Shown: positions 20,641 to 35,538 of the stretch, one piece after another | Numbering within the stretch: the stretch's first letter is position 1 | How the letters are laid out: each line of letters begins with the position of its first letter | Virus record (IMG/VR): IMGVR_UViG_3300032255_000170 | Location: 1 to 37,908 of that record | DNA length: 37,908 nt | Strand: one strand, 5' to 3' | Source: a virus | Lineage: Duplodnaviria > Caudoviricetes | Position numbers and translations under genes: made by a program | The notes under the pieces: generated by a model | What the model was told of the DNA's origin: nothing | The model's database searches: none | The model's input: only the letters and a program-made list of their open reading frames with translations

Positions 20641-21147
20641 ATGACACAGACCAATCAAATCGCCGCCCAGCGGATGTTCCTCAACGCGGGCAAGACCGCC
20701 GTGTTGGCCGAGGGCCACGAAGACGCCGCGTTCTTTTACGCTGGCAAAGGTGATGAAATCCCGGCCACCGCTTGCGAGCGGTTCGGCATCGTCGATGGCA
20801 AGGTGCCGACCAAGGGCCGCGCGAAGGCGTCGGGCAAGGCGCAGGGCGAGGGCAAGGAAAAAGCGCCTCCTGCCAACAAAGGCGGTAAAACACCCGCCAA
20901 CAAGGGCGGTGAGAAACCAGATAACAAGGGCGGATCGGGCGGCGAGGCGAAGCCTGCCGCCCTGACCGATATCGACGGCATTGGCCCTGCCACCGCCAAA
21001 GCTCTTGTCGCAGCGGGTGTCGCCGATGTTGCTGCGCTTGCGGCTGTTGATCCTGCCAGCCCGCCTCAATTGGAAAAGACGCCGCCGAACTTTGATTGGG
21101 CTGCTGTCGTTGCTGCTGCAAAAGCTCAAACGGGCGATGCGGAATGA
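20641..21147 (+). CDS. Helix-hairpin-helix domain protein with a Lys/Gly-rich repeat linker
   Basis: LTDIDGIGPATAKAL HhH motif; PANKGG/PANKGG/PDNKGG repeats. Confidence 0.8.
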   Translation: MTQTNQIAAQRMFLNAGKTAVLAEGHEDAAFFYAGKGDEIPATACERFGIVDGKVPTKGRAKASGKAQGEGKEKAPPANKGGKTPANKGGEKPDNKGGSGGEAKPAALTDIDGIGPATAKALVAAGVADVAALAAVDPASPPQLEKTPPNFDWAAVVAAAKAQTGDAE

Positions 21148-21461
21148 GGGCGCTCGAGGTCCAAAGCAAGGGCGAGTTCCGTGTCGGGGTTGATTTCAAT
21201 CCTAGCCATGATGTGGTGGTCGACAAGCTTAAGCGTCAGGCGGCCGACTTGATCGATACGATTGAGGAGATCGGTGTTCGGTTTGGCGGCGAAGAGTTTG
21301 TCGCACGGCACGATGGTGAGGTCGCTCGCCTTAAGTCGCTCGCTCAAACGTCGATCGAAGACGGGGCCATGTGGGCGGTTAAAGCCGCGACCAAGCGGCC
21401 TCCTGCTGTTGTCGAAGTGGAAGACGCTGCACCGGTCGTTCAAGCAGACGAGGCCGCCTGA
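21144..21461 (+). CDS. Acb2/Tad1-like helical-hairpin protein (candidate anti-defence nucleotide sponge)
   Basis: VDKLKRQAADLID...ARLKSLAQTSIEDGAMWAVKAAT resembles the Acb2-type C-terminal helix. Confidence 0.6.
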   Translation: MRALEVQSKGEFRVGVDFNPSHDVVVDKLKRQAADLIDTIEEIGVRFGGEEFVARHDGEVARLKSLAQTSIEDGAMWAVKAATKRPPAVVEVEDAAPVVQADEAA

Positions 21462-22027: not shown

Positions 22028-22350
22028 GCGGCGAAACCAAACTAACCATCGCGGAGGAGGATCGGCCAAAGGCATTCTTAGAGCTGACGGATGAAGCTCT
22101 AGGGCGTTTTGCTCGGTCGTATCTCATTCAGATTGGAAGGCAGGTCGATACCCATGCTGGCAACCGCGAGATGCCGTTGCCTATCGCGATGTCCATGCAC
22201 GGCTCGATCGCGCTCTACCGGATGGCTTTTGAAGCCAACGCCGGTGAGCTTCATCTCACTCACAGCGAAGTCGAGTGGGGTGGGGAGAACCGAGGTGATT
22301 GGGAGATGATCCTCCGCCGCGTCGATCAAGGCGAAGTGGGGCCAGCATGA
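22024..22350 (+). CDS. Hypothetical accessory protein coupled to the desaturase
   Basis: GTGA and ATGA overlaps; no recognised motif. Confidence 0.65.
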   Translation: MSGETKLTIAEEDRPKAFLELTDEALGRFARSYLIQIGRQVDTHAGNREMPLPIAMSMHGSIALYRMAFEANAGELHLTHSEVEWGGENRGDWEMILRRVDQGEVGPA

Positions 22351-22886
22351 CCTTACTCGCAATCGCCTCTTTCCTCGCTCAGCTTTTCCTTGGCTGGCTG
22401 CTGGCCGATTTCCTCTCTGGTGTGCTGCACTGGATTGAGGATCGCTTTGGACCGGGCCGCGAGGATTGGCCGGTGCTTGGCCCGCTAATCTTCACGCCCA
22501 ATTTGATCCATCATGATGTGCCGACCCTGTTTTTGGACAGCGGTTTTGTCGAACGCAATTGGACGACGTGGGCTGTCGTCGTTCCGCTGGCCGCCGCGCT
22601 GCTCCTGCTCTTCGGGTCGCATCCGTTGATCTGGGCAGCGGCGGTCGGCGGGGCAATGGCAAACGAGATTCACGCTTGGGCGCATCGCCGCACAATGCTG
22701 CCGGTTTGGGCGCGCACGCTTCAGGATTGGGGTGTGATCCAATCGCCGGGGCATCATGCGGTCCATCACATTCCCGATCATCGCCGCAATTTCTGCATCG
22801 TGACCAATTGGCTTAACCCGATCCTAGACCACTATGAATTCTGGTACCGGATCGAGCGCCGCCTGCCGAAAGGCTGGATCGCGTGA
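22347..22886 (+). CDS. CarF/TMEM189 (PEDS1/FAD4/Kua) family lipid desaturase
   Basis: ADFLSGVLHWIED, IHH, NEIHAWAH, HHAVHH and NFCIVTNWLNPILD, with several TM segments. Confidence 0.88.
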   Translation: MTLLAIASFLAQLFLGWLLADFLSGVLHWIEDRFGPGREDWPVLGPLIFTPNLIHHDVPTLFLDSGFVERNWTTWAVVVPLAAALLLLFGSHPLIWAAAVGGAMANEIHAWAHRRTMLPVWARTLQDWGVIQSPGHHAVHHIPDHRRNFCIVTNWLNPILDHYEFWYRIERRLPKGWIA

Positions 22887-24110: not shown

Positions 24111-24241
24111 TGACCACGCCGCTCTCTGGCCGCAGCGCTTTTCCGCGCTTCGCTTCATTCAGCCGCACCCTGCGCGCCGCAATGATGGCGGGCACCTGCC
24201 TTTCTCATCCCATTCTCTCGTCATCTTAGGAGCACCAAGTC

Positions 24242-24847
24242 ATGACACCTTTTGAAATCATCACCGCACCGATGAAGGTTTACATCGCCCCGATCGGCGA
24301 AGCCTTCCCCGATATCGATGCCGCACCCGCTGGCAATTGGGAGCTGCTCGGCACGAACGGCGACCGGTCTTACGAAGAGAGCGGCGTCACCGTCTCCCAT
24401 TCGAAAAGCTACGACAAGGTCCGCACCGCTGGCGCGACTGGCCCGGTTAAATCGACCCTGCGCGAAGAGGATATGATGGTCCGGCTGACGCTGCTCGATC
24501 TCACTCTCGAGCAGTATAAGAACGCGCTCAACGGCAACACTGTGACCACGGTCGCAGCCGGTTCAGGCACTGCTGGCAGCAAGAAGATCGGCCTGTCGCA
24601 AAGCGTCGGCCGGACACGCGAATTCGCTCTGCTGGTGCGCGGCCAGTCGCCTTACGATGAGACGATGAACGCGCAGTACGAAGTGCCCCGGTGCTATGAC
24701 AGCGGCAGCGCCGAGCCAGTCTTCCGCAAGGGCGGCAGCGGCGCGGCTCTCGCGCTCGAATTGACCGCGCTCGAGGATTTGAGCGCATCCAGCGAAGAAG
24801 AGCGTTTCGGGCGTTTCGTCGCGCAACATCAGGACGCTTTGCCCTGA
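24242..24847 (+). CDS. Major tail tube protein
   Basis: Strong AGGAG SD; VYIAPIG..FP...W..LG...GVT motif; between the terminator and chaperone genes. Confidence 0.82.
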   Translation: MTPFEIITAPMKVYIAPIGEAFPDIDAAPAGNWELLGTNGDRSYEESGVTVSHSKSYDKVRTAGATGPVKSTLREEDMMVRLTLLDLTLEQYKNALNGNTVTTVAAGSGTAGSKKIGLSQSVGRTREFALLVRGQSPYDETMNAQYEVPRCYDSGSAEPVFRKGGSGAALALELTALEDLSASSEEERFGRFVAQHQDALP

Positions 24848-24939: not shown

Positions 24940-25500
24940 ATGCCCGCCCCGGACACCCAAGCCGCCGACAATCAGCCCGCCGCCATCGATGAGCCGGATC
25001 GCCCGGCGCTGCTCGATCTCGACACGCTTGTCGTTCGCCCGCTCATCAACATCGATGAGGCGAAGTTCGAAATCCTGCATCCCAATGAATTGAGCGTGAT
25101 CGCGCAGGCCCGGTTTGGCCGCGATGGCCGCCGGATCGATGAATTGGAAAAGGACGACAGCGCCAAGGCCGAGGAAGAGCTGGAGCAGCTGATCAACCGG
25201 ACAGCGCGCAAAATTGCTGTCGGCGTTCCCGATACCGTTTGGGCCAAGCTGAGCGGGTCGCATCATTGGGCGATCGTCGACCTTTTTACCGGACTCTCGC
25301 TGCGACAGAAGATGGCAGTGGCGGGAGCGATGTACAAAGCCAGCGGGGACATGGAGACGCTGTTCCGCCCGCAAGCGGACGCCAGTCCCGCACCGACTGG
25401 GGCAAAGTCATCCCCGAACTTCAACGCTTCTATGGAGGCAGCCCCGCGAGCTGGCTGGATCAAATCCCTGCGGGCCTTGTTAGGGCCTACATCCGGATGA
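24940..25500 (+). CDS. Tail assembly chaperone (G-like)
   Basis: Position between the tube and tape measure genes; overlapped by a -1 frame ORF. Confidence 0.7.
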   Translation: MPAPDTQAADNQPAAIDEPDRPALLDLDTLVVRPLINIDEAKFEILHPNELSVIAQARFGRDGRRIDELEKDDSAKAEEELEQLINRTARKIAVGVPDTVWAKLSGSHHWAIVDLFTGLSLRQKMAVAGAMYKASGDMETLFRPQADASPAPTGAKSSPNFNASMEAAPRAGWIKSLRALLGPTSG

Positions 25501-25733
25501 TGCCGCGGCTTCAAGCCAGCGAGCAGCTCGACGCCATCCGCGTCGGCAGCATCGCGGGCGGCAATATGGAAAAGCAAGCACGGACCGACGCGATCCGCAC
25601 CCTGCAAAGACGCGCCAATGACGGGTCTCAGACCGGCAGTCAGCCTGCGCGCCGCGCCACTGTGCAAGATATGGCCGGAATGGGCATAGGCGTGCGCTTG
25701 GCCGCTCCAGCGACGGAGGCCTCCGGTGGCTGA
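25398..25733 (+). CDS. Tail chaperone T-like segment, probably made as a -1 frameshift extension (start uncertain)
   Basis: -1 frame open 25239-25733 (WGKVIPELQRFYGG...); alternative own ATG at 25497. Confidence 0.55.
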   Translation, partial: WGKVIPELQRFYGGSPASWLDQIPAGLVRAYIRMMPRLQASEQLDAIRVGSIAGGNMEKQARTDAIRTLQRRANDGSQTGSQPARRATVQDMAGMGIGVRLAAPATEASGG

Positions 25734-27975
25734 AACGCTTGGCGATGCTCTCCTCAACATTCGCACCAATGACGGCACGTTCTATTCGGATGTGAACCGG
25801 GCAAAAGGCGCGTCTGAGCAGCTTGGCGCGTCGATGGATAAGACATCGGGCAGCAGCAAGAAGCTCGCCACCGAAATGTCGCAGACCGGGCGCAGCGCCA
25901 AAACGATGGGAGACGGGTTTCAGGCAACCGGCAAGAAGGTCACTCAATCAGCAGGTTCGCAGCGCGCCGGGATGCAGCAGCTGAGCTTTCAGCTCAACGA
26001 TGTCGCCACAATGTACTCACTGGGCGCGCGGCCGATGCAAATCTTCGCCTCGCAATCGGGTCAAGTGGTCCAAGCGGTGCAGTTGATGACAGGCGGGACC
26101 AGCAAGCTTGCTGGCTTCCTCGGTGGTCCTTGGGGCATCGCGCTTACATCAGCCGCGATCGTCCTGACGCCGTTTATCGCCAAACTGTTTCAGGCGGAAG
26201 ATGCGCTGGAGGCGGTTGAGTTCGCATCCGACAATCTGGGCGATGCACAGGACATCCTGCGCAGCGTGATCGACACAACAACCGGCAGCATCGATCGGCA
26301 GCGCACTGCGTTGCTGTTGCTGGCGCAGGCGAAGGCGCTGGCCGCCGTTCAAGGCTCGCGTGAGCGGACGCAGGAGCTGCGCGGCGATCTAGAAGGCGCA
26401 GCGGGTGAAACCGAGTTGGTGCGCGGGTTGTTTGGCCTCCCTATTCCGGGCGGAACGCCCGGTTCGGGGCGAGGTCTTTTGAGGAAGAAAACCGACACCG
26501 CCAATATCGTTCGCGGTATGCTGGATGGCTCGATCACGGCGCAACAGGCTACCGAACAGCTCGGCGCTCTGCGCGCGTCAGGATCGATCAGCGCGAACGA
26601 CGAAATTCAACTTTCCAGCACCATCGCCAATCTGGGCGTTGAGAACGTCAACCTCGACCGCAATCAGGCGATGCTGCGGTTCTTGAATGATGAAGCAACG
26701 GCCGAGGACCGCGAGTTGCTTGGCATTAGCGATCTGGTTGATGATCCGGACAAGCCCGGCGCCCGAAATTCTCGCGCCCGATCGCGGCGCGGTTCACGCG
26801 GGCCATCACAATCAGAGATCAATTCGCGCTATGAGGCCGATCTGGTGGCGGTCACTCAACGCATTTTGCAGGCGCGCGCCCAGATCGCAACAAATGCCGA
26901 GGACCGGGCTAAGCTTCAGCTGCGCCAAGTCGAATTGAGCCGCCGCACTGCACAAGCCGAAATCGAGGCTGATGAGCACCTAAGCGATGTTCAAAAGGGA
27001 GAGTTGATCGCTGCTGAAGAACGGCTGGCGATGGCTGAGCGCGAGGTGGTCGAATTTAACAAGCGCGGGCAACTTGAAAGCGAAGCCCGCGCGCTATCCG
27101 AAGAGCGATACACCAACACCCGCGAGGCGCTCGACCTTGAACTCGAGCTGGCGGACACAGAGGCGGATCGCAAGGCGATTGCGCTCAAAACACTAGAGGC
27201 GGAAGAACAATTCCTGCGGCAACGACTGCTTGCGATTATCTTCAGTGAAACCGCTACCCAAGCGGAAAAAGAGCGGGCGGAAGTGGCGCTGGCCGCTATC
27301 CGCAATACCTCTGCCGGTCGCCGGGCCGCAGTCGCCCGGGCGAATGAGACAAGCGTCGAAGGTTATCTGCGCGGACTTGATCTAAGCAAAGAGCAGCTCA
27401 ACGAGGCAATTGACGGGATTACAATCAGCGGGCTGGAGAACCTGAACGAAGGCCTGATCGACGTGATCACCGGGGTTCAATCGCTGGGTGACGTTTTTTC
27501 CAGCGTCGCGGACCAGATTATCTCCGATCTTTTGCGGATCGCGATACAGCAAGCGATCATCAAACCACTGGCAGAAAGTCTGTTTGGCGGTGGTGGTAGT
27601 GGGGGAGGCGATCTTGGCGGATCGATCAGCGGCATCGGCGAGTTGTTCGCTGGGTTCTTTGCGACCGGCGGCCTGATCCCGAACGGTCAATTTGGCATCG
27701 TGGGCGAGGAAGGGCCAGAGGCGGTCTTCGCCACGTCCAGCGGCCTTAATGTGGTCCCCGCTGGCAAGACACGCCAGATGACAGGCGCTGATGGCGGCGC
27801 AGGCACCAGCGTTTCCATTCCTATCAGCATCGATGCGACCGGCGCGGATGCAGCCGGGCTGGAGCGGGTGCGCGCCGAAATACGGCGGTTAAGGCAAGAG
27901 CTGCCCGGCACGATCATCACCACAATCCAAGATGCCGACAGCCGCCGCATCATCAATTTGCAAGGTGGGTTATGA
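25726..27975 (+). CDS. Tape measure protein
   Basis: Lambda-type QLSFQLNDVAT...QSGQVVQ region, long helical body, C-terminal FATGG...VGEEGPE. Confidence 0.92.
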   Translation: MAETLGDALLNIRTNDGTFYSDVNRAKGASEQLGASMDKTSGSSKKLATEMSQTGRSAKTMGDGFQATGKKVTQSAGSQRAGMQQLSFQLNDVATMYSLGARPMQIFASQSGQVVQAVQLMTGGTSKLAGFLGGPWGIALTSAAIVLTPFIAKLFQAEDALEAVEFASDNLGDAQDILRSVIDTTTGSIDRQRTALLLLAQAKALAAVQGSRERTQELRGDLEGAAGETELVRGLFGLPIPGGTPGSGRGLLRKKTDTANIVRGMLDGSITAQQATEQLGALRASGSISANDEIQLSSTIANLGVENVNLDRNQAMLRFLNDEATAEDRELLGISDLVDDPDKPGARNSRARSRRGSRGPSQSEINSRYEADLVAVTQRILQARAQIATNAEDRAKLQLRQVELSRRTAQAEIEADEHLSDVQKGELIAAEERLAMAEREVVEFNKRGQLESEARALSEERYTNTREALDLELELADTEADRKAIALKTLEAEEQFLRQRLLAIIFSETATQAEKERAEVALAAIRNTSAGRRAAVARANETSVEGYLRGLDLSKEQLNEAIDGITISGLENLNEGLIDVITGVQSLGDVFSSVADQIISDLLRIAIQQAIIKPLAESLFGGGGSGGGDLGGSISGIGELFAGFFATGGLIPNGQFGIVGEEGPEAVFATSSGLNVVPAGKTRQMTGADGGAGTSVSIPISIDATGADAAGLERVRAEIRRLRQELPGTIITTIQDADSRRIINLQGGL

Positions 27976-28667
27976 TCCTTAATCAACCAGAGACACTGTC
28001 CGGCATCGCGCAAGTGAGCTTTGAGCCGCAGCGCATCGATTACAGCGCGCCCCAAGCCAGCGGCAAGCAGGGCGGTGTGCAGGCCGGTTGGCCGCTTTGG
28101 GCCGCGCAATTTGATATCGACCGCAGCGATCCGGCGTCGGCGGATTTATGGCGCGCGTTCTTTGCCCGGCTGCGCGGCCGCATTCGCCGGTTCTACGCCT
28201 ATGATACGACACGCCGCCGCCCGCTGGCGCACCGGTTTGATCTGCTAACTTTGATCCGCGCTGGTGGCGGCGCGTTCAATGGCGCGGCGACCAGCTGGAG
28301 CCAGTCGATCGACGCCGATGGCGAGGCCGCCGTCACGCTCAACGGATTGCCTGCTGGCATGGCCTTGTCGATCGGCGATTACATTGGGTTCAAATGGGAC
28401 GCTGCGGGGGCGGTAAGCGGCTCTTACGAGCGGCGGACCTTGGCGCGCGTGGTTCTTCCATCTGTGGCGGATGGTGCCGGGCAGGTGGTGGCCACGGTTG
28501 AGCCGCCGCTCAACACGAACCTCGTTCCAGCAGGCGCGATCGCCCATCTCGATGATCCCATGTGCGTCATGCAGCAAGTGACCGAGGGATCGCAGCTGGG
28601 GCCGGTTGTTGAAGCCAACATCTTGAGCGGAGCGACCATCATTGCGGTGCAGGATTTGCGCCCATGA
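27972..28667 (+). CDS. Distal tail/tip protein
   Basis: Follows the tape measure; WRAFFARLRGR...YD..RRRP...VEPPL. Confidence 0.7.
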   Translation: MILNQPETLSGIAQVSFEPQRIDYSAPQASGKQGGVQAGWPLWAAQFDIDRSDPASADLWRAFFARLRGRIRRFYAYDTTRRRPLAHRFDLLTLIRAGGGAFNGAATSWSQSIDADGEAAVTLNGLPAGMALSIGDYIGFKWDAAGAVSGSYERRTLARVVLPSVADGAGQVVATVEPPLNTNLVPAGAIAHLDDPMCVMQQVTEGSQLGPVVEANILSGATIIAVQDLRP

Positions 28668-29305: not shown

Positions 29306-29751
29306 CGGTGCCGCCGCTTCCTCTTTCGCGCAATATTCCAGCGCTGATCGCGATGATCGATGCGCGTGCCGAGTGGGGGCATCGCTGGGTCCGTGGGCGC
29401 GATTGCGTCAGTTTCGCACTTCGCTGTGTCGAGGCACAGACCGGCGTTGATCTGCTCGCGGGAATTCCGACCTGGTCTAATCGGCGCGAGGCTCTGGATG
29501 TCACGCGCGGCCTTGGCGGGTTGGTCGCAGCGCTCGATGACCGGATGGCGATGGCCGCGCCTGCTTTGGCGCAGCGCGGCGATGTCGCCGGATTGCCAGA
29601 CAAAGCGTTCGGCGTGCGCTTGATGGTGGTTGAAGGGGCGACTTTGGTTGGGCCGGGACAAGGACGGCTCGAGCGTTTGCCGCGCAGCGCAATGATGTGC
29701 GCATGGTCCGCCTCCACCGCTGGATTCGGCATGGCGGGGATTGGTGCATGA
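29302..29751 (+). CDS. NlpC/P60-like tail assembly protein (DUF6950-like)
   Basis: RDCVSFA...EAQTGVD...AQRGDV; synteny. Confidence 0.7.
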   Translation: MTVPPLPLSRNIPALIAMIDARAEWGHRWVRGRDCVSFALRCVEAQTGVDLLAGIPTWSNRREALDVTRGLGGLVAALDDRMAMAAPALAQRGDVAGLPDKAFGVRLMVVEGATLVGPGQGRLERLPRSAMMCAWSASTAGFGMAGIGA

Positions 29752-31892
29752 GTAAGGTCGTCAGGGTCATCGTTGGTGCGGCCGCAATCGTAGGCGGTGC
29801 GTTGACGGGCAATTTTGCTCTGATCGCCACTGGTATTTCAATGGTCGGCGGCGCATTACTCGGACCTAAGCAGCCTCAGAGCGATCGCACCGCAGTTGCT
29901 GCGCAGCTGCAATTGGGCGAGGTGCCGCGCGGCGCGATCGCGGGCCGCGCCGGAATAGATGGCAGTCTGGTCGATGCCTTTAATCACGGCGGAGATGATG
30001 GCACCGATTGGGAGGTCTTGGTCATCGCTCTGGCCGATCACGAATGCGACGCGCTGGAGGGGTTTTATGTCGGCGACACCTATGTTGCCTTCACTGGTGA
30101 CGGGGCGGTTGCTGGCTACAACGGTCAGCTTGAGGTTTATTGGAAATCGGGCACATACGATCAGACCGCATCAACCTATCTGACCGCGAATGGGCCGGGA
30201 TGGACGGCGAATGATCGGGGCCGATCTGTCGCCTATGTCGTGGCCGCATACAAAGCCGATGAACCCGATGCCGACAATCCGGTTTGGCCCAGCGGCCGCC
30301 CGCAGTTCAAATGGATCGTCCGGGGCCTCAAATGCTATCAGGCGCGGCTTGACACCAGCGTTGGCGGCAGCGGCGCGCACCGCCGCAATGATCCCTCTAC
30401 GTGGCAGTGGACAGAGAACCTTATCGATATCCGCTACAATTGGGTGCGCGGCATTTATGCGGGCAACCGCGTGGATGAGCCGCAAAGCCTTTTGATCGGA
30501 CGCGGCCTATCGGCGATCGAGGCACCGCCTGCAAACGTGTTTGCGCGCGCCAATCTTTGCGATGAAATCGTTGGCGGAGCAGCGCGCTACCGGATTGGCG
30601 GGGCGATTTTCGCGACTGAGAAATTTGAGGATGTGGAGAATGATTTCGCTGCGGCCTGTGCCGGGATCATCGTACAGCGCGAGGGCAGCGTCGAGATCGA
30701 TCCGGGAGAGGCCAAATCGGTTGTAGCCAGCTTTACCGATGATGATCTAATTGTAGGCAGCAATGTCCAGTTTTCCGACTTTCTTGGCAGCGGCGATGCG
30801 GGATGGGTCAACACGGTCGTTGCCGCCTTTACCGATCCAGATCAAAAATGGACCGAGCTTGGTGCGCCGGTTAAGCGCGATGTTGCCGATATTGCCGCCG
30901 ATGGCGCGCCGCGCGAGCAGCAATTGAGCCTTGGCCTTGTCACGAACAGTCCGCAGGCGCAGCGGGTTGCCGAAATATTCCGCCGTCTTGGCCGTCTGTG
31001 GTGCAGAGCCCAAGTTACCCTGCCGCCAGCCTTCGCAGCGCTTGAAGAAGGGGATTGGGTCAATTGGACCAGCGACCGGCATTTTGGCGGCGTGACCAAA
31101 ACTTTCCGGATCGACGCGTTCGGTTCCGATGAAGGCTGGCGTCACCAATTGACCCTGCGCGAGATCGATGCCGCCGCCTATTCAGACGCCGCCGCCGAAG
31201 CCGATGGCGCGGTCGCTGTCCAGCAACCCGCACCAGCGGCTTTAACCGCGCCGGGCGCAGCGGCATGGAGTTCGGCCGGCACAATTGTGAGCGGATCGGG
31301 CGGATCAATCCCGGCGATTGTCGTCACGGGCGCTGTTGATCGATCCTTCGTCTCTTCGATCGTGGTTGAATACCGCGTCAACGGCGCAAGCACTTGGCAG
31401 CGATGGGGCGAGTTCAGCAGAGACTTCACATCGGCAACAATCACCGGCGTCGGCGATCAGACCGCATACGAAGTTGCCATCCGCTACATCGTCGACGGTG
31501 AGCGCACACCGCGCCTTGTGTTGGCGGCGGTCACAACGGGAGCGCTGTCGACGGCATCGGGCGCGCGCACGATCATCTCGCGCAGCGTGGCCTATCCTCT
31601 GACCAGCGATGACACCAGCATCTCCATCGCGGCCTTCACCGCCGTGCTCGATGACGGGCAAACGCTAAGCTTGCCAGCCGCCCCGCTCAGCCCGCTTGCA
31701 TCGGGCAGCAGTTTTGCCGTTTTTCGCAACATCGCCGCCGGGACATATTTCGCCGCAGCCTCTCCTGCGCTGAGCGAAATGGCCGATTCCGGGCTTGTCC
31801 TGATCGGCACCCAATCGACCAGTTCTGGCGGCACTTACACGCCGCCCGTCACGCCGGACGGCGTGGGAGGCGATGGAACGCAGCCGTATTAA
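29748..31892 (+). CDS. Central tail tip / host-specificity protein (lambda J-like) with Fn3-like domain
   Basis: VRGLKCY..R...TWQWTEN, ANLCDE, LEEGDWV, YEVAIRY. Confidence 0.85.
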   Translation: MSKVVRVIVGAAAIVGGALTGNFALIATGISMVGGALLGPKQPQSDRTAVAAQLQLGEVPRGAIAGRAGIDGSLVDAFNHGGDDGTDWEVLVIALADHECDALEGFYVGDTYVAFTGDGAVAGYNGQLEVYWKSGTYDQTASTYLTANGPGWTANDRGRSVAYVVAAYKADEPDADNPVWPSGRPQFKWIVRGLKCYQARLDTSVGGSGAHRRNDPSTWQWTENLIDIRYNWVRGIYAGNRVDEPQSLLIGRGLSAIEAPPANVFARANLCDEIVGGAARYRIGGAIFATEKFEDVENDFAAACAGIIVQREGSVEIDPGEAKSVVASFTDDDLIVGSNVQFSDFLGSGDAGWVNTVVAAFTDPDQKWTELGAPVKRDVADIAADGAPREQQLSLGLVTNSPQAQRVAEIFRRLGRLWCRAQVTLPPAFAALEEGDWVNWTSDRHFGGVTKTFRIDAFGSDEGWRHQLTLREIDAAAYSDAAAEADGAVAVQQPAPAALTAPGAAAWSSAGTIVSGSGGSIPAIVVTGAVDRSFVSSIVVEYRVNGASTWQRWGEFSRDFTSATITGVGDQTAYEVAIRYIVDGERTPRLVLAAVTTGALSTASGARTIISRSVAYPLTSDDTSISIAAFTAVLDDGQTLSLPAAPLSPLASGSSFAVFRNIAAGTYFAAASPALSEMADSGLVLIGTQSTSSGGTYTPPVTPDGVGGDGTQPY

Positions 31893-31925
31893 ACCGCCAC
31901 TGATCACCCGCTTAGGACCGAATAA

Positions 31926-34900
31926 ATGACACCTTCAGAAATCATCGCATCGCCTTACACAATCTGGATTGCTCCGGTCGATACTGCGTTTCCGGCAGTT
32001 AATGCTGCGCCCGGATCGGCCTGGACGAAGATCGGCACCAGCGGCGACCGCAGCTACAGCGAGAACGGCGTCACCGGCCGTCATATCCGCCGGAACGAAA
32101 CCACTCAGCCAGCGGGCAGCACTTCACCGACATACAGTTTTACCTCTGGCGAAGAATACAGGGTTGCGGCCGAGCTGTTCGATCTTTCGCTTGAACAATA
32201 CGCCCACGCTCTGGGCCAGAACGCAATTGTGGCAACATCGGCGCTTCCGGGCCTTCCCGGCACCAAGGTGATCGGATTGAGCATGAGGGCGCGCTCAGAG
32301 GACGTCTTTGCGATCATGGTGCGCGGCCCTTCACCGTATGGAGAAACGCTGCGCGCTCAATTTGAATTGCCGCGTTGCCGGGAGGCCGGGACTGGTCCGC
32401 AAGTCCGCCTGCGCCGAGGTGTTCCAGCAGCCTTGGCAATTGAGTTTGTGGCGCTCGAGGACCCGAATGCGGTGAGTGAAGATCAGCTCTTTGGGCGGCT
32501 TGTTGCGCAAACGGCGGACGAGTTGGCGCGGTCTGGCACATCTCCCAATCTCTACAGCTTTGCTGGCACGGGCTATCGCTGGCCGGTTGTGGGGCAGGCT
32601 GCGACCGAGACGTTCTTCGCGTCCGAATGGTATCACCACACCCCGGATTATGAGACGACCGACATCCGCTTCAACTGCCCCGCGTTCTGGTCGCCAACGG
32701 CGGGCGGTGAGGTGGCGATTGCGACCGGCGAGAGCATCACGATTCAGGGTGTTTCGATTGAGGTTTCTCCGGGGGTTTGGGTCGCGTGCGACGGCGCAGC
32801 CGAGACCGGTGTCGCCACGGTTGATGAGAACAATCTGAACGCGCTTTTACCGCGTGTGCAGGCCACACTGGCCGCCAATACAGCGTATCGCTGCCGCATA
32901 GCTGGTTTCTTTTCCAGCGCCGGTTTGGTTGTTCCGCGCAACACCTTGGCACCGGGCGGCGGCGCGCCGGGCGGGCAGTCTCGGCGTGAAGGCGCGGCAA
33001 CAACACTTTTTGATCGCTTGTCAGCGACCGGATCGAACCTCGCAAACAACAGCGGTGCGGTTTACTACGTGCCAAGCTTTCCGGTGGCGAAGGGCGGTGA
33101 TGGTCGGCCCGCGGAACTGGTGGTGGGCGACAGCATTGGCCACGGGGGGAATGACACGCAGGCAGAGGCCGCATGGACCGCCCGAAACGCGGTTGGTTAT
33201 GTCGAACGCGGGTTGGACGACAACGGCGAAGGCTTGCGTATTGCATCCCACATCATGTGCATTCCCGGTCAGCGCCCAGTTGGTGCGTTCGGTTGGGATA
33301 ACCCGGCCAATTGGTCCGGCAAAATTGCGGCGTTGCAGGGTGTGTTTAACGCCAATGGCGATTGGCCGTTCGATGAAATCCTAAACCAGCACATCACCAA
33401 TTCCATTCCGTATTCGGGCACTTTGCGCACCGACATGGACACGTATTTCGATTTGCTGGCGAGCACGTTTGGGAAGCCAGTTTATCAGATCGAAGGACTG
33501 CCCGCGACAAGCAGCAGCGATGGTTTTGCCACGGTCGCCAATCAAACGCCGACATCGGGTTACGCGGCAGCGGGGGCAACACAAGGGCACCTGTGGGCGT
33601 TTAATGCCGATGTGGGTGGCGCGGACGGCCTCGGCGATGCAGCGGCTTACTATCGCGCTTCTGGCAAGATTGCAGGCTCCATCGCCCCTTGGCGTTTGAC
33701 CAGCGCAGACACGACAACAGGCCGGGATAAATGGGCGGTCCGACCATTCGCGACCACACTGGCATCGGCGTATGCAAGCGGCAATGACATCATTTTGACG
33801 GCGGCACCGGACATCGGGGCGGCTATCAATATGAACCAGAACACCGGGGGCTTTGGCACTCTGCGAACGGTCACGGCGGTTTCTGGCACTGGGCCTTTCA
33901 CAGTCACCCTGTCCGGCGCACCGGGCACAGCGGCCAATGCTGGCAACGCAGTGCAAGAGGCATGGGGCGACGGAATTCACCCATCGGGCACGGTTCATGC
34001 GGTGTTGGCGCAATCAATCATTGATTACAAAGTGACGCGCGGTTGGGCATCGCCGCTTATCGTGCCCGCGTTCACTTCGTCCTCTATCAGCGGCACGCCC
34101 GAGGACGGTCAAATCCTAACCGCCAACGCGGTCGTGACCGGCAATCCCGCCCCAACGCTGGCCTATCAATGGCAGAAAGCGGGCGTCAACATCAGCGGGG
34201 AGGCATCGCAAACAATCACACTCAACGCGGGCACGATGAGCCTGACCGACGCGGATATAATTAGCTGCGAGATCACTGCGACAAATTCAGTTGCATCGGC
34301 GGTCGCAGAGCCGACGATTGCCTTTGTCGGCGCGTCCGGCGCGGTGCCGACATTCCTCGCTACCATCAACGCATCGAGTGAAAGCGGCTATTTCGACATG
34401 ACCGCTGCGGTCATCAATGGTTCGGGCCGTTTTGAGGCAACCGATGACAATGGCGGCGCGGTGTTCACCACAGTGGGCACAAGCGTTAATCCAAACATCG
34501 ATGGCACCTTGGGGGCGGTCTATCCTGACGGAACAACATTGATAACCCGCGCCCAAGCGGCGGGTCTTTACACACTTGTCTTTACGATGACGAAGGCTGC
34601 TGGTGTGGGCGATGCCGCCGATGCGTTTATGTTCGGCAATGACACCAGAATTAGGAGCGGCCAAACAACCGCGCTGACTGTCCCTGTTGAGGTTGACGGT
34701 GTGTCGATCACCACTGAGGATGCGTTGTATACCGCGCTCAATGACGCAGCCGAGCATACGATTGCTGTTCCGGGCTTTGACCGCAGCGCCGCGCTGGATA
34801 TTGATATTGGCCGCAGCGGTTCGGGTTTCCTTGGATCAGTCCGGCGTGTTGCGATCATCAGTGAAACCGACGCTGGCGGCAATCTGGCGACGTGGAAGGC

Positions 34901-34931
34901 CGAAGCAATTGCTGCGGTTGAGGCGGCGTGA
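31926..34931 (+). CDS. Tail-tube paralogue fused to SGNH hydrolase, Ig-like and possible lectin domains
   Basis: Residues 1-201 align without gaps to 24242-24847; VVGDSIG and GDGIHP motifs; GNPAPTLAYQWQK...ISCEITATN Ig-like domain. Confidence 0.85.
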   Translation: MTPSEIIASPYTIWIAPVDTAFPAVNAAPGSAWTKIGTSGDRSYSENGVTGRHIRRNETTQPAGSTSPTYSFTSGEEYRVAAELFDLSLEQYAHALGQNAIVATSALPGLPGTKVIGLSMRARSEDVFAIMVRGPSPYGETLRAQFELPRCREAGTGPQVRLRRGVPAALAIEFVALEDPNAVSEDQLFGRLVAQTADELARSGTSPNLYSFAGTGYRWPVVGQAATETFFASEWYHHTPDYETTDIRFNCPAFWSPTAGGEVAIATGESITIQGVSIEVSPGVWVACDGAAETGVATVDENNLNALLPRVQATLAANTAYRCRIAGFFSSAGLVVPRNTLAPGGGAPGGQSRREGAATTLFDRLSATGSNLANNSGAVYYVPSFPVAKGGDGRPAELVVGDSIGHGGNDTQAEAAWTARNAVGYVERGLDDNGEGLRIASHIMCIPGQRPVGAFGWDNPANWSGKIAALQGVFNANGDWPFDEILNQHITNSIPYSGTLRTDMDTYFDLLASTFGKPVYQIEGLPATSSSDGFATVANQTPTSGYAAAGATQGHLWAFNADVGGADGLGDAAAYYRASGKIAGSIAPWRLTSADTTTGRDKWAVRPFATTLASAYASGNDIILTAAPDIGAAINMNQNTGGFGTLRTVTAVSGTGPFTVTLSGAPGTAANAGNAVQEAWGDGIHPSGTVHAVLAQSIIDYKVTRGWASPLIVPAFTSSSISGTPEDGQILTANAVVTGNPAPTLAYQWQKAGVNISGEASQTITLNAGTMSLTDADIISCEITATNSVASAVAEPTIAFVGASGAVPTFLATINASSESGYFDMTAAVINGSGRFEATDDNGGAVFTTVGTSVNPNIDGTLGAVYPDGTTLITRAQAAGLYTLVFTMTKAAGVGDAADAFMFGNDTRIRSGQTTALTVPVEVDGVSITTEDALYTALNDAAEHTIAVPGFDRSAALDIDIGRSGSGFLGSVRRVAIISETDAGGNLATWKAEAIAAVEAA

Positions 34932-35185
34932 TGATTGCCGAGGTGGAGCGGTTCCTGCGCCGCACGGATATGCCTGCGTCAACATTTGGCCGCATGGCAG
35001 TTGGCGATCCCAAGCTGGTTTACGATCTGCGCGGGGGCCGCGCGCCTCGCTCGTCTCTGCGCCGGCGCGTTGAAGGCTTCATGCGCGATTGGAACGGCAA
35101 AACATTCCAGCGCCAATGCGCTGCTGAAACCCGCCCGCGCATTCGCCACGGGGCAAATCACAAACGCAAAATAGGAGTGAGATAA
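34931..35185 (+). CDS. Small Cro-like HTH protein
   Basis: EVERFLRRTDMPASTFGRMAVGDPKLVYDLRGGR. Confidence 0.7.
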   Translation: MIAEVERFLRRTDMPASTFGRMAVGDPKLVYDLRGGRAPRSSLRRRVEGFMRDWNGKTFQRQCAAETRPRIRHGANHKRKIGVR

Positions 35186-35538
35186 TGGGACTTTTTGGAC
35201 CCTCTGTCGCGGAGATGCAGCAGGCAATATCCGCCGCGCTTAGCGCACGCGAAACTCCGCCGCCTCTGGTCCTACCCAAATTCCCGACGTCGTTGGACGT
35301 AGCCCAGCCAGAGGTTCGCCCTGCGCGCGATATGCGGCCATTCGCAGATGATGATGCCGGTGCACGTCTGGACCCGCGCCCGCACGCCCTGTGGGCCAAT
35401 GGTGCGGCAGAGATCAAGGTCGAGAACGAGAGCGGTGATGTCGTCCTGTTCAAGGTTGCCGGTCCCGGACCGATCGATGTCTCGCCCGCCGCCATTCACA
35501 GCGTCAAGGGCGGCCCGATCGTTCTGCTCTTCCCCTGA
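35185..35538 (+). CDS. Hypothetical protein
   Basis: AGGAG SD; TAATG overlap. Confidence 0.7.
   Translation: MGLFGPSVAEMQQAISAALSARETPPPLVLPKFPTSLDVAQPEVRPARDMRPFADDDAGARLDPRPHALWANGAAEIKVENESGDVVLFKVAGPGPIDVSPAAIHSVKGGPIVLLFP

Follow-up and report, generated by a model that had tools for sequence, protein, structure and literature searches.

A tail tube paralogue fused to a predicted SGNH esterase in a Mu-like siphoprophage: a candidate tip-ring anchor for exchangeable receptor-binding enzymes

What does a second tail tube gene do when it lies among the tail tip genes of a prophage and is fused to a predicted esterase? The window, that is, the whole stretch of 37 908 nt analysed here, is a 37.9-kb provirus record, 96% complete, of a Mu-like transposable siphoprophage. 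Profile searches identified the Mu-type genes for transposase A, transposase B, GemA, Mor and Gam, and the window further contains a head module (portal, prohead protease and capsid) and a non-contractile tail module comprising terminator, tube, chaperones, tape measure, Dit, a second tip protein, DUF6950 and hub. A glutathione S-transferase encoded at the right edge falls into a 90% cluster shared with proteins of Erythrobacter and Qipengyuania; the host is therefore probably a member of the Erythrobacteraceae. Relatives of the main tube protein in phages StopSmel and Aussie are annotated as major tail protein. The hub, 713 amino acids counted from its ATG, is without a long C-terminal extension. 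The features of the fusion gene and of the tail genes discussed below are given in Table 1.

Several other genes of the window were recorded. The tube gene is followed by two overlapping tail-chaperone-like ORFs (24940–25733), which we take to be the usual layout of a frameshifted G/GT pair. Directly 3' of the capsid gene is a helix-hairpin-helix protein (20641–21147; HHH_5, E 7e-8), and an ORF among the head genes (21096–21461, plus strand) scores 41.5 bits (cut-off 27) for an Acb2/Tad1 hairpin domain, making it a probable sponge against CBASS/Thoeris-type defence. A gene with a lipid desaturase domain (22299–22886, plus strand; PF10520, E 1e-37) is inserted between the head–tail joining genes; such a gene is also present in a related locus (L003, 1304–1837), and a similar ORF occurs at the same position in G001. 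Two small ORFs of 85 and 117 amino acids 3' of the fusion gene (34928–35538) had no Pfam or PHROG match. Promoters and terminators were no more or less numerous than expected by chance.

Table 1. Coordinates in the window of the fusion gene, its domains and the tail genes to which it is compared
Feature	Position	Strand	Basis
Main tail tube protein gene	24242..24847	+	phrog_117 E 2.5e-7; between terminator and assembly chaperones
Distal tail protein (Dit) gene	27972..28667	+	phrog_1302 E 4e-26
Baseplate hub gene, short form	29697..31892	+	PF13550, phrog_5616
Ribosome-binding site TTAGGA of the fusion gene	31912..31917	+	sequence
Tail-tube-fold anchor domain, residues 1–201	31926..32528	+	93/201 identity; AF2 pLDDT 94; Bxb1 match; clade support 100
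CBM-like beta-sandwich, residues ~206–390, packed on the esterase	32541..33095	+	all-beta model; aligned with the SGNH domain to PbeAcXE 7TOG
Predicted SGNH esterase domain, residues ~391–708	33096..34049	+	S403, G424, N492, D682, H685; phrog_8480 E 2.7e-19; Z 26.2
Ig-like domain, residues ~714–800	34065..34325	+	Ig_3 E 0.13 here; E 9e-5 in P0154
C-terminal beta domain, possibly LamG/lectin-like	34338..34931	+	Atlas score 0.94 to Laminin_G_3 clusters

The fusion ORF (31926–34931) encodes a polypeptide of 1001 amino acids. The original prediction, made from the sequence alone, that its N-terminus aligns to the tail tube protein without gaps was borne out, residues 1–200 matching the product of the 201-aa ORF at 24242–24847 with 93/201 identities (E 2e-49). 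The claim of a common gene start also held: TTAGGA is found upstream of both genes (31912–31917 and 24226–24231) and both begin ATGACACCTT. Because only 323/603 positions of the DNA and 77/201 third codon positions are identical between the two genes, the tube gene duplication appears to be old, and the third-position identity rules out a recent one. A frameshift product of the main tube gene was ruled out, the fusion being a separate gene that lies 7.7 kb downstream and has a ribosome-binding site of its own, and an assembly chimera or artefact by the same architecture in 15 other proteins, taken as independent fusions. One contig covers the whole stretch with zero differences and may itself be the source of this DNA; contigs of a second study cover the fusion gene in pieces only. 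Pfam and NCBIfam searches with the window protein gave no significant match, and a PDB sequence search nothing significant. The Ig-like domain suggested from the sequence was weak in the window protein itself and clearer in the close relative P0154 (Table 1); the proposed lectin-like C-terminus is a lead only, two of the 30 Atlas matches being Laminin_G_3 clusters and the other 28 unnamed clusters.

The SGNH motifs reported earlier are located at residues 401–405 (GDSIG) and 682–686 (DGIHP). Residues S403, G424, N492 and H685, representing blocks I, II, III and V, were invariant in 36/36 aligned relatives, and position 682 was D in 18 and E in 7 rows (D/E in 25/36). The model of residues 206–715 (pLDDT 93.8) has an alpha/beta/alpha SGNH fold with a small beta insertion ahead of block V. 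With these four residues invariant and the fold matched, the tube paralogue carries, as had been supposed, an intact predicted SGNH esterase. Structural comparison of the cargo (residues 206–708) with the acetyl xylan esterase PbeAcXE (7TOG) gave Z 26.2 and an rmsd of 3.7 over 342 aligned residues across the CBM-like and SGNH domains; the polyvinyl alcohol esterase 9KQZ followed with Z 25.2, and the next match had Z 16. PbeAcXE and FjoAcXE are two-domain enzymes in which a CBM-like domain is packed on the SGNH domain (7TOG; PMC9105624), an arrangement that the cargo has in common with them and with 9KQZ. It differs from PbeAcXE in having 11% identity, an extra beta insertion and GDSI instead of GNSI. 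GNSI is the motif at the catalytic serine given for the PbeAcXE family (PMC9105624), and GDSI was found in 36/36 rows of the cargo family; hence the cargo shares the fold of the FjoAcXE/PbeAcXE family but not its membership.

The same CBM+SGNH module was found in stand-alone proteins of ~525 amino acids (32 matches among 7997 scored). It adjoins a beta-helix spike-like gene in another phage (locus L160) and a gene annotated as 'polysaccharidase' in Rhizobium phage AF3, and in P0154 the whole cargo, including the Ig and C-terminal domains, is carried on a different 36-aa N-terminus (69% identical over 787 amino acids). Judging from these stand-alone forms, neighbours and N-termini, the esterase module is a mobile one. 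SGNH receptor-binding proteins of Klebsiella prophages are proven esterases on fibres (PMC13123978), the epsilon15 petal domain is an SGNH de-O-acetylase on an adsorption protein (10.64898/2026.07.31.742079), and G7C gp63.1 is cited as a further SGNH de-O-acetylase of this kind. From the fold and by analogy with the proven SGNH receptor-binding esterases (PMC13123978; epsilon15 preprint), we infer that the fusion may de-O-acetylate LPS or EPS of the host. The Klebsiella, epsilon15 and G7C enzymes sit on trimeric fibres or spikes, and the available text of these sources describes no tube-fold anchor.

Exchange of cargo behind a conserved N-terminal anchor is what receptor-binding proteins usually show. 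A survey of relatives for different cargo on the same tube domain, as originally proposed, did find such exchange. Among the best 150 of 479 matches were 13 long fusions of 805–1151 amino acids with an N-terminal tube domain; P0003 and a 1514-aa ORF in L021 bring the number to at least 15 relatives beside the window's fusion. A quick tree with midpoint root was calculated from 68 rows: of the first 70 proteins, three that were partial or extended were dropped, one tube protein was added, and L021 stayed outside the set. In this tree 15 long fusions, including that of the window, and three short forms made up a clade (SH-aLRT 100) apart from 50 stand-alone tube proteins. The cargo was of the CBM+SGNH class, as in the window, in P0004, P0007 and P0018; it contained Pfam GDSL domains in P0011 and P0012, was SASA-like in P0003 and P0016 (judged by motif and weak similarity to an ORF of L022 that matches SASA), and was beta-helix-like in P0009 (an Atlas lead, 0.90) and P0020 (a weak match). 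In two pairs the exchange could be placed at the linker, the tube domains being identical at 194/199 (P0004/P0005) and 176/197 positions (P0013/P0016) and the cargo beyond unrelated. Annotated phage genomes contained single-copy relatives only (StopSmel, Aussie and Mwe-Yong1), the main tube protein as query gave no loci in a first viral scan, and a second family-wide genome search added zero new genomes. The search for fusions of >2000 amino acids brought up nothing but partial matches of low identity, to proteins whose annotation names other repeat domains.

The paralogue was located directly 3' of the hub in 11/11 loci with upstream flank, namely the window, L003, L021–L026, L033, L056/L121 and L120 (L023, L025 and L026 being near-copies), and the hubs of these loci were 612–850 amino acids long. 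By contrast, four close relatives without the paralogue (L031, L037, L044 and L050), which amount to about two lineages, have the same tip module, a single tube gene and hubs of 1204–1643 amino acids, of which 2/4 had a tail-tip-fibre Pfam match; three further relatives were cut off and left unscored for this contrast. Since L031 and L037 nest among paralogue carriers in the Dit tree, the swap between paralogue and long hub appears to be recent. Distant near-complete relatives had one tube gene in 5/5 cases. In StopSmel the slot 3' of the hub holds a tail fibre, and this, together with the position in all eleven loci, agrees with the original assignment of the fusion gene to the receptor-binding slot. 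No classical fibre gene had been seen in the window, and none was found between hub and Gam by Pfam and PHROG profile searches. The slot of the true tube protein, from terminator to chaperones and tape measure, is occupied by the gene at 24242–24847 and not by the fusion gene. The start of the paralogue overlaps the hub stop in L003 and L023, which suggests a hub-like low copy number. These data bear on whether the protein belongs to the virion at all. A released or lysis-time esterase, with the tube domain as a leftover of the duplication, would be in keeping with the stand-alone esterase proteins; we regard it as the least probable of the readings considered, given that the tube domain is conserved while the cargo changes and is kept even without cargo, and that the gene sits where StopSmel has its fibre.

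A separate main tube gene was present in 9/11 paralogue records and absent in G415 and G417, both of which look decayed. G415 is missing everything from portal to tape measure, and its terminase almost abuts Dit, with Dit, hub and paralogue fusion intact (L121, 4214–6691). G417 is missing the neck, terminator and tube genes, and its head-closure gene directly adjoins the tail chaperone (L022, 2627–3544 and 9983–13578). The only tube gene of G417 is the paralogue, consisting of 261 amino acids of tube and Ig domain followed by a 937-aa SASA ORF in another frame; this split is probably due to decay, and it resembles a frameshift-extended tube gene.

The N-terminal domain had been expected to adopt a tube fold, and its AlphaFold2 model, built on an 87-row alignment of mostly true tube proteins, reached a pLDDT of 94 and had solved siphophage tubes as its best structural matches: Bxb1 (Z 14.1, rmsd 4.4, 176 aligned), Douge (Z 14.0) and JBD30 (Z 13.3). 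The beta-sandwich, the helix and the long beta2–beta3 loop of tube proteins are all present. We compared 20 paralogue rows with 42 tube rows, one row per set missing this segment. The residues predicted to make side contacts (G117, L118, S136, Q145, F189 and G190) were conserved in tube proteins and paralogues alike, as were core residues. Conservation of these ring-forming residues argues against a side adaptor, that is, a tube-like domain that, outside the DNA channel, either forms its own oligomer or attaches to the exterior of the tip and there carries the enzyme. Residues conserved specifically in the paralogues (R79, E83, G97 and E153) do hint at a different environment, and a cargo-free form of 227 amino acids precedes a separate 584-aa gene, as might be expected of an adaptor; the hub C-termini of paralogue carriers, however, are of several unrelated types, and no common docking domain is seen among them. 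Taken together, we consider such an adaptor improbable.

The two groups part in the stacking loop. The beta2–beta3 loop is the main ring-to-ring contact of the tube, and two charge changes in it halt tube growth in lambda (PMC8718954); in JBD30 it faces the ring below and, in the last ring, sits on Dit (PMC11445458). K70 was present in 41/42 tube rows and 0/20 paralogue rows, and R61 in 81% of tube rows versus 5% (1/20) of paralogue rows, so that these family-conserved residues of the loop do not characterise the paralogue clade. Their replacements in the paralogues are variable, which fits relaxed selection. In the window, residues 51–84 of the fusion are identical to the main tube protein at 9/34 positions, compared with 84/167 elsewhere (hand count).

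A mixed ring, for which complex prediction had been suggested as a check, was found to be compatible with a model of three tube domains and one paralogue domain, in which the latter sits between two main tube subunits; the model agrees with mixed rings just as well as with one special ring. The score was 0.63 with the best control at 0.00, on a mark that is reached by 116/157 solved pairs and 2/215 mismatched pairs; ring formation by side contacts is thus modelled, but close cousins and solved-like pairs pass too, and the result may reflect likeness to tube rings rather than binding. Runs agreed in at least 96% of contacts, with a partner pLDDT of at least 78. Residues 61 and 65–78 are also listed in the side interface of this model, and for that reason their inter-ring role is taken from the other phages.

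The predicted insertion between two main subunits via both side interfaces is what would be expected of a guest subunit, which would co-polymerise with the main subunit, enter mixed rings in small proportion at any point of the tube and decorate the tail with esterase arms. By hand count, the paralogue shares about 15/23 of the most confidently predicted contact residues with the main subunit, and neighbours could compensate for a weak stacking loop. Such a guest would resemble SPP1 gp17.1* and lactococcal TpeX but come from a gene of its own. We nevertheless think it unlikely: the clade-wide loss of K70 is hard to explain in a subunit sitting on tube rings, and the gene, placed in the fibre slot, shows coupling to the hub and goes together with loss of the long hub extension. 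The original prediction had left co-polymerisation into the tube and one special ring side by side. Its separate tube paralogue stands; free co-polymerisation along the tube is the less supported, and one special ring is favoured because K70 and mostly also R61 have been lost.

The reading that we prefer, with the odds in our estimate evenly balanced, is that of a tube-anchored, receptor-binding predicted esterase present at low copy in the tail, most likely as a ring on Dit, the presumed seat of the special ring. The tube fold, the intact SGNH residues, the position after a short hub, the cargo swapping and the loss of R61 and K70 speak for it. The model that inserts the paralogue between main subunits speaks against it, in that mixing within a ring would not be prevented, and so do the two records (G415 and G417) that have the paralogue but no main tube gene, decayed as they look. 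A subunit that never lies above a tube ring could lose R61 and K70 freely, which points to a ring at the tip end; at the head end, both residues would remain necessary. The paralogue subunit would still pair side by side with its neighbours and, without the basic residues of the beta2–beta3 loop, would dock poorly on an ordinary tube ring below. The loop faces the tip in solved tails, so that only the first ring would be open to the paralogue, with ordinary tube rings stacking on the head-side face of the latter. Some six arms could then bind a polysaccharide on the surface of an Erythrobacteraceae-type host and remove its O-acyl (probably O-acetyl) groups, standing in for the long central fibre of the sister phages. 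Slightly more tentative is the wider proposal of a self-limiting tube subunit, in which loss of the stacking charges would have turned the duplicate into one dedicated ring. Into this ring any of several enzymes that attack glycans, or else a separate fibre, would be plugged in place of the central fibre, giving a modular adsorption device free of fibres whose receptor-binding anchor is the tube wall. Co-adaptation of Dit was sought and none found, one column sorting with paralogue presence (9 vs 4 rows); since ordinary tube rings also sit on Dit, this neither favours a tip ring nor rules one out.

In type VI secretion, Hcp proteins with C-terminal extensions offer a second tube-fold gene with fused variable cargo, in a toxin-delivering secretion system and not in phage adsorption. 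Among phages, T5 p140 is likewise a tube-gene duplicate encoded with the tip genes and forms one ring between tube and Dit, where the side fibres are held (PMC10038345). That protein has 9% identity to the tube protein, is an undecorated trimer and needs the p132 collar to hold fibres (PMC10038345), whereas the fusion has 47% identity to the tube, a single tube domain and ~800 amino acids of enzyme cargo fused directly. SPP1 gp17.1* and TpeX of the lactococcal 936 phages are tube subunits with C-terminal host-binding extensions; a programmed frameshift in the one tube gene produces them, and their modules are non-catalytic (PMC6669499). The fusion is a separate, diverged gene, its cargo being predicted to be catalytic and its stacking loop changed. 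Evolved Dit proteins display carbohydrate-binding modules on a tip ring of tube fold (PMC6669499), but the window keeps an ordinary Dit, and the decorated ring proposed here would come in addition to it, with its origin in the tube gene. Duplicated major tail genes occur within one genome in actinophage clusters AU and DJ (10.1101/2020.01.10.891226; PMC10652937), for which, unlike the fusion, the available text of these reports describes no cargo fusion or function. Singly, therefore, the elements are already known: a tube duplicate as tip ring, decorated tube subunits, SGNH adsorption enzymes and duplicated tube genes. No separate tube paralogue with a fused enzyme, swappable or otherwise, was found in the open-licence PMC and bioRxiv literature.

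If the proposal is true, it would constitute a further way of attaching host-recognition enzymes to long-tailed phages: a tube paralogue that can exchange its cargo behind residue 200 would suffice, and collar, fibre anchor and frameshift could all be dispensed with. In annotations such genes would wrongly appear as a second major tail protein or stay hypothetical, and they may explain some prophages in which no receptor-binding gene is visible. The main and paralogous subunits, 47% identical and differing most in the stacking loop, would also serve as a natural experiment on what positions and limits tube rings.

The 584-aa gene 3' of the short, cargo-free form belongs to a cluster that includes named Citromicrobium proteins and, as named strains carry it, cultured hosts for prophage induction probably exist. 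In L047/L048 (G272:C1:3040000-3069999) and L026, two related copies of the tail region are arranged tail to tail in inverted orientation, each with a 227-aa paralogue and, downstream of it, a 584-aa gene that differs slightly between them.
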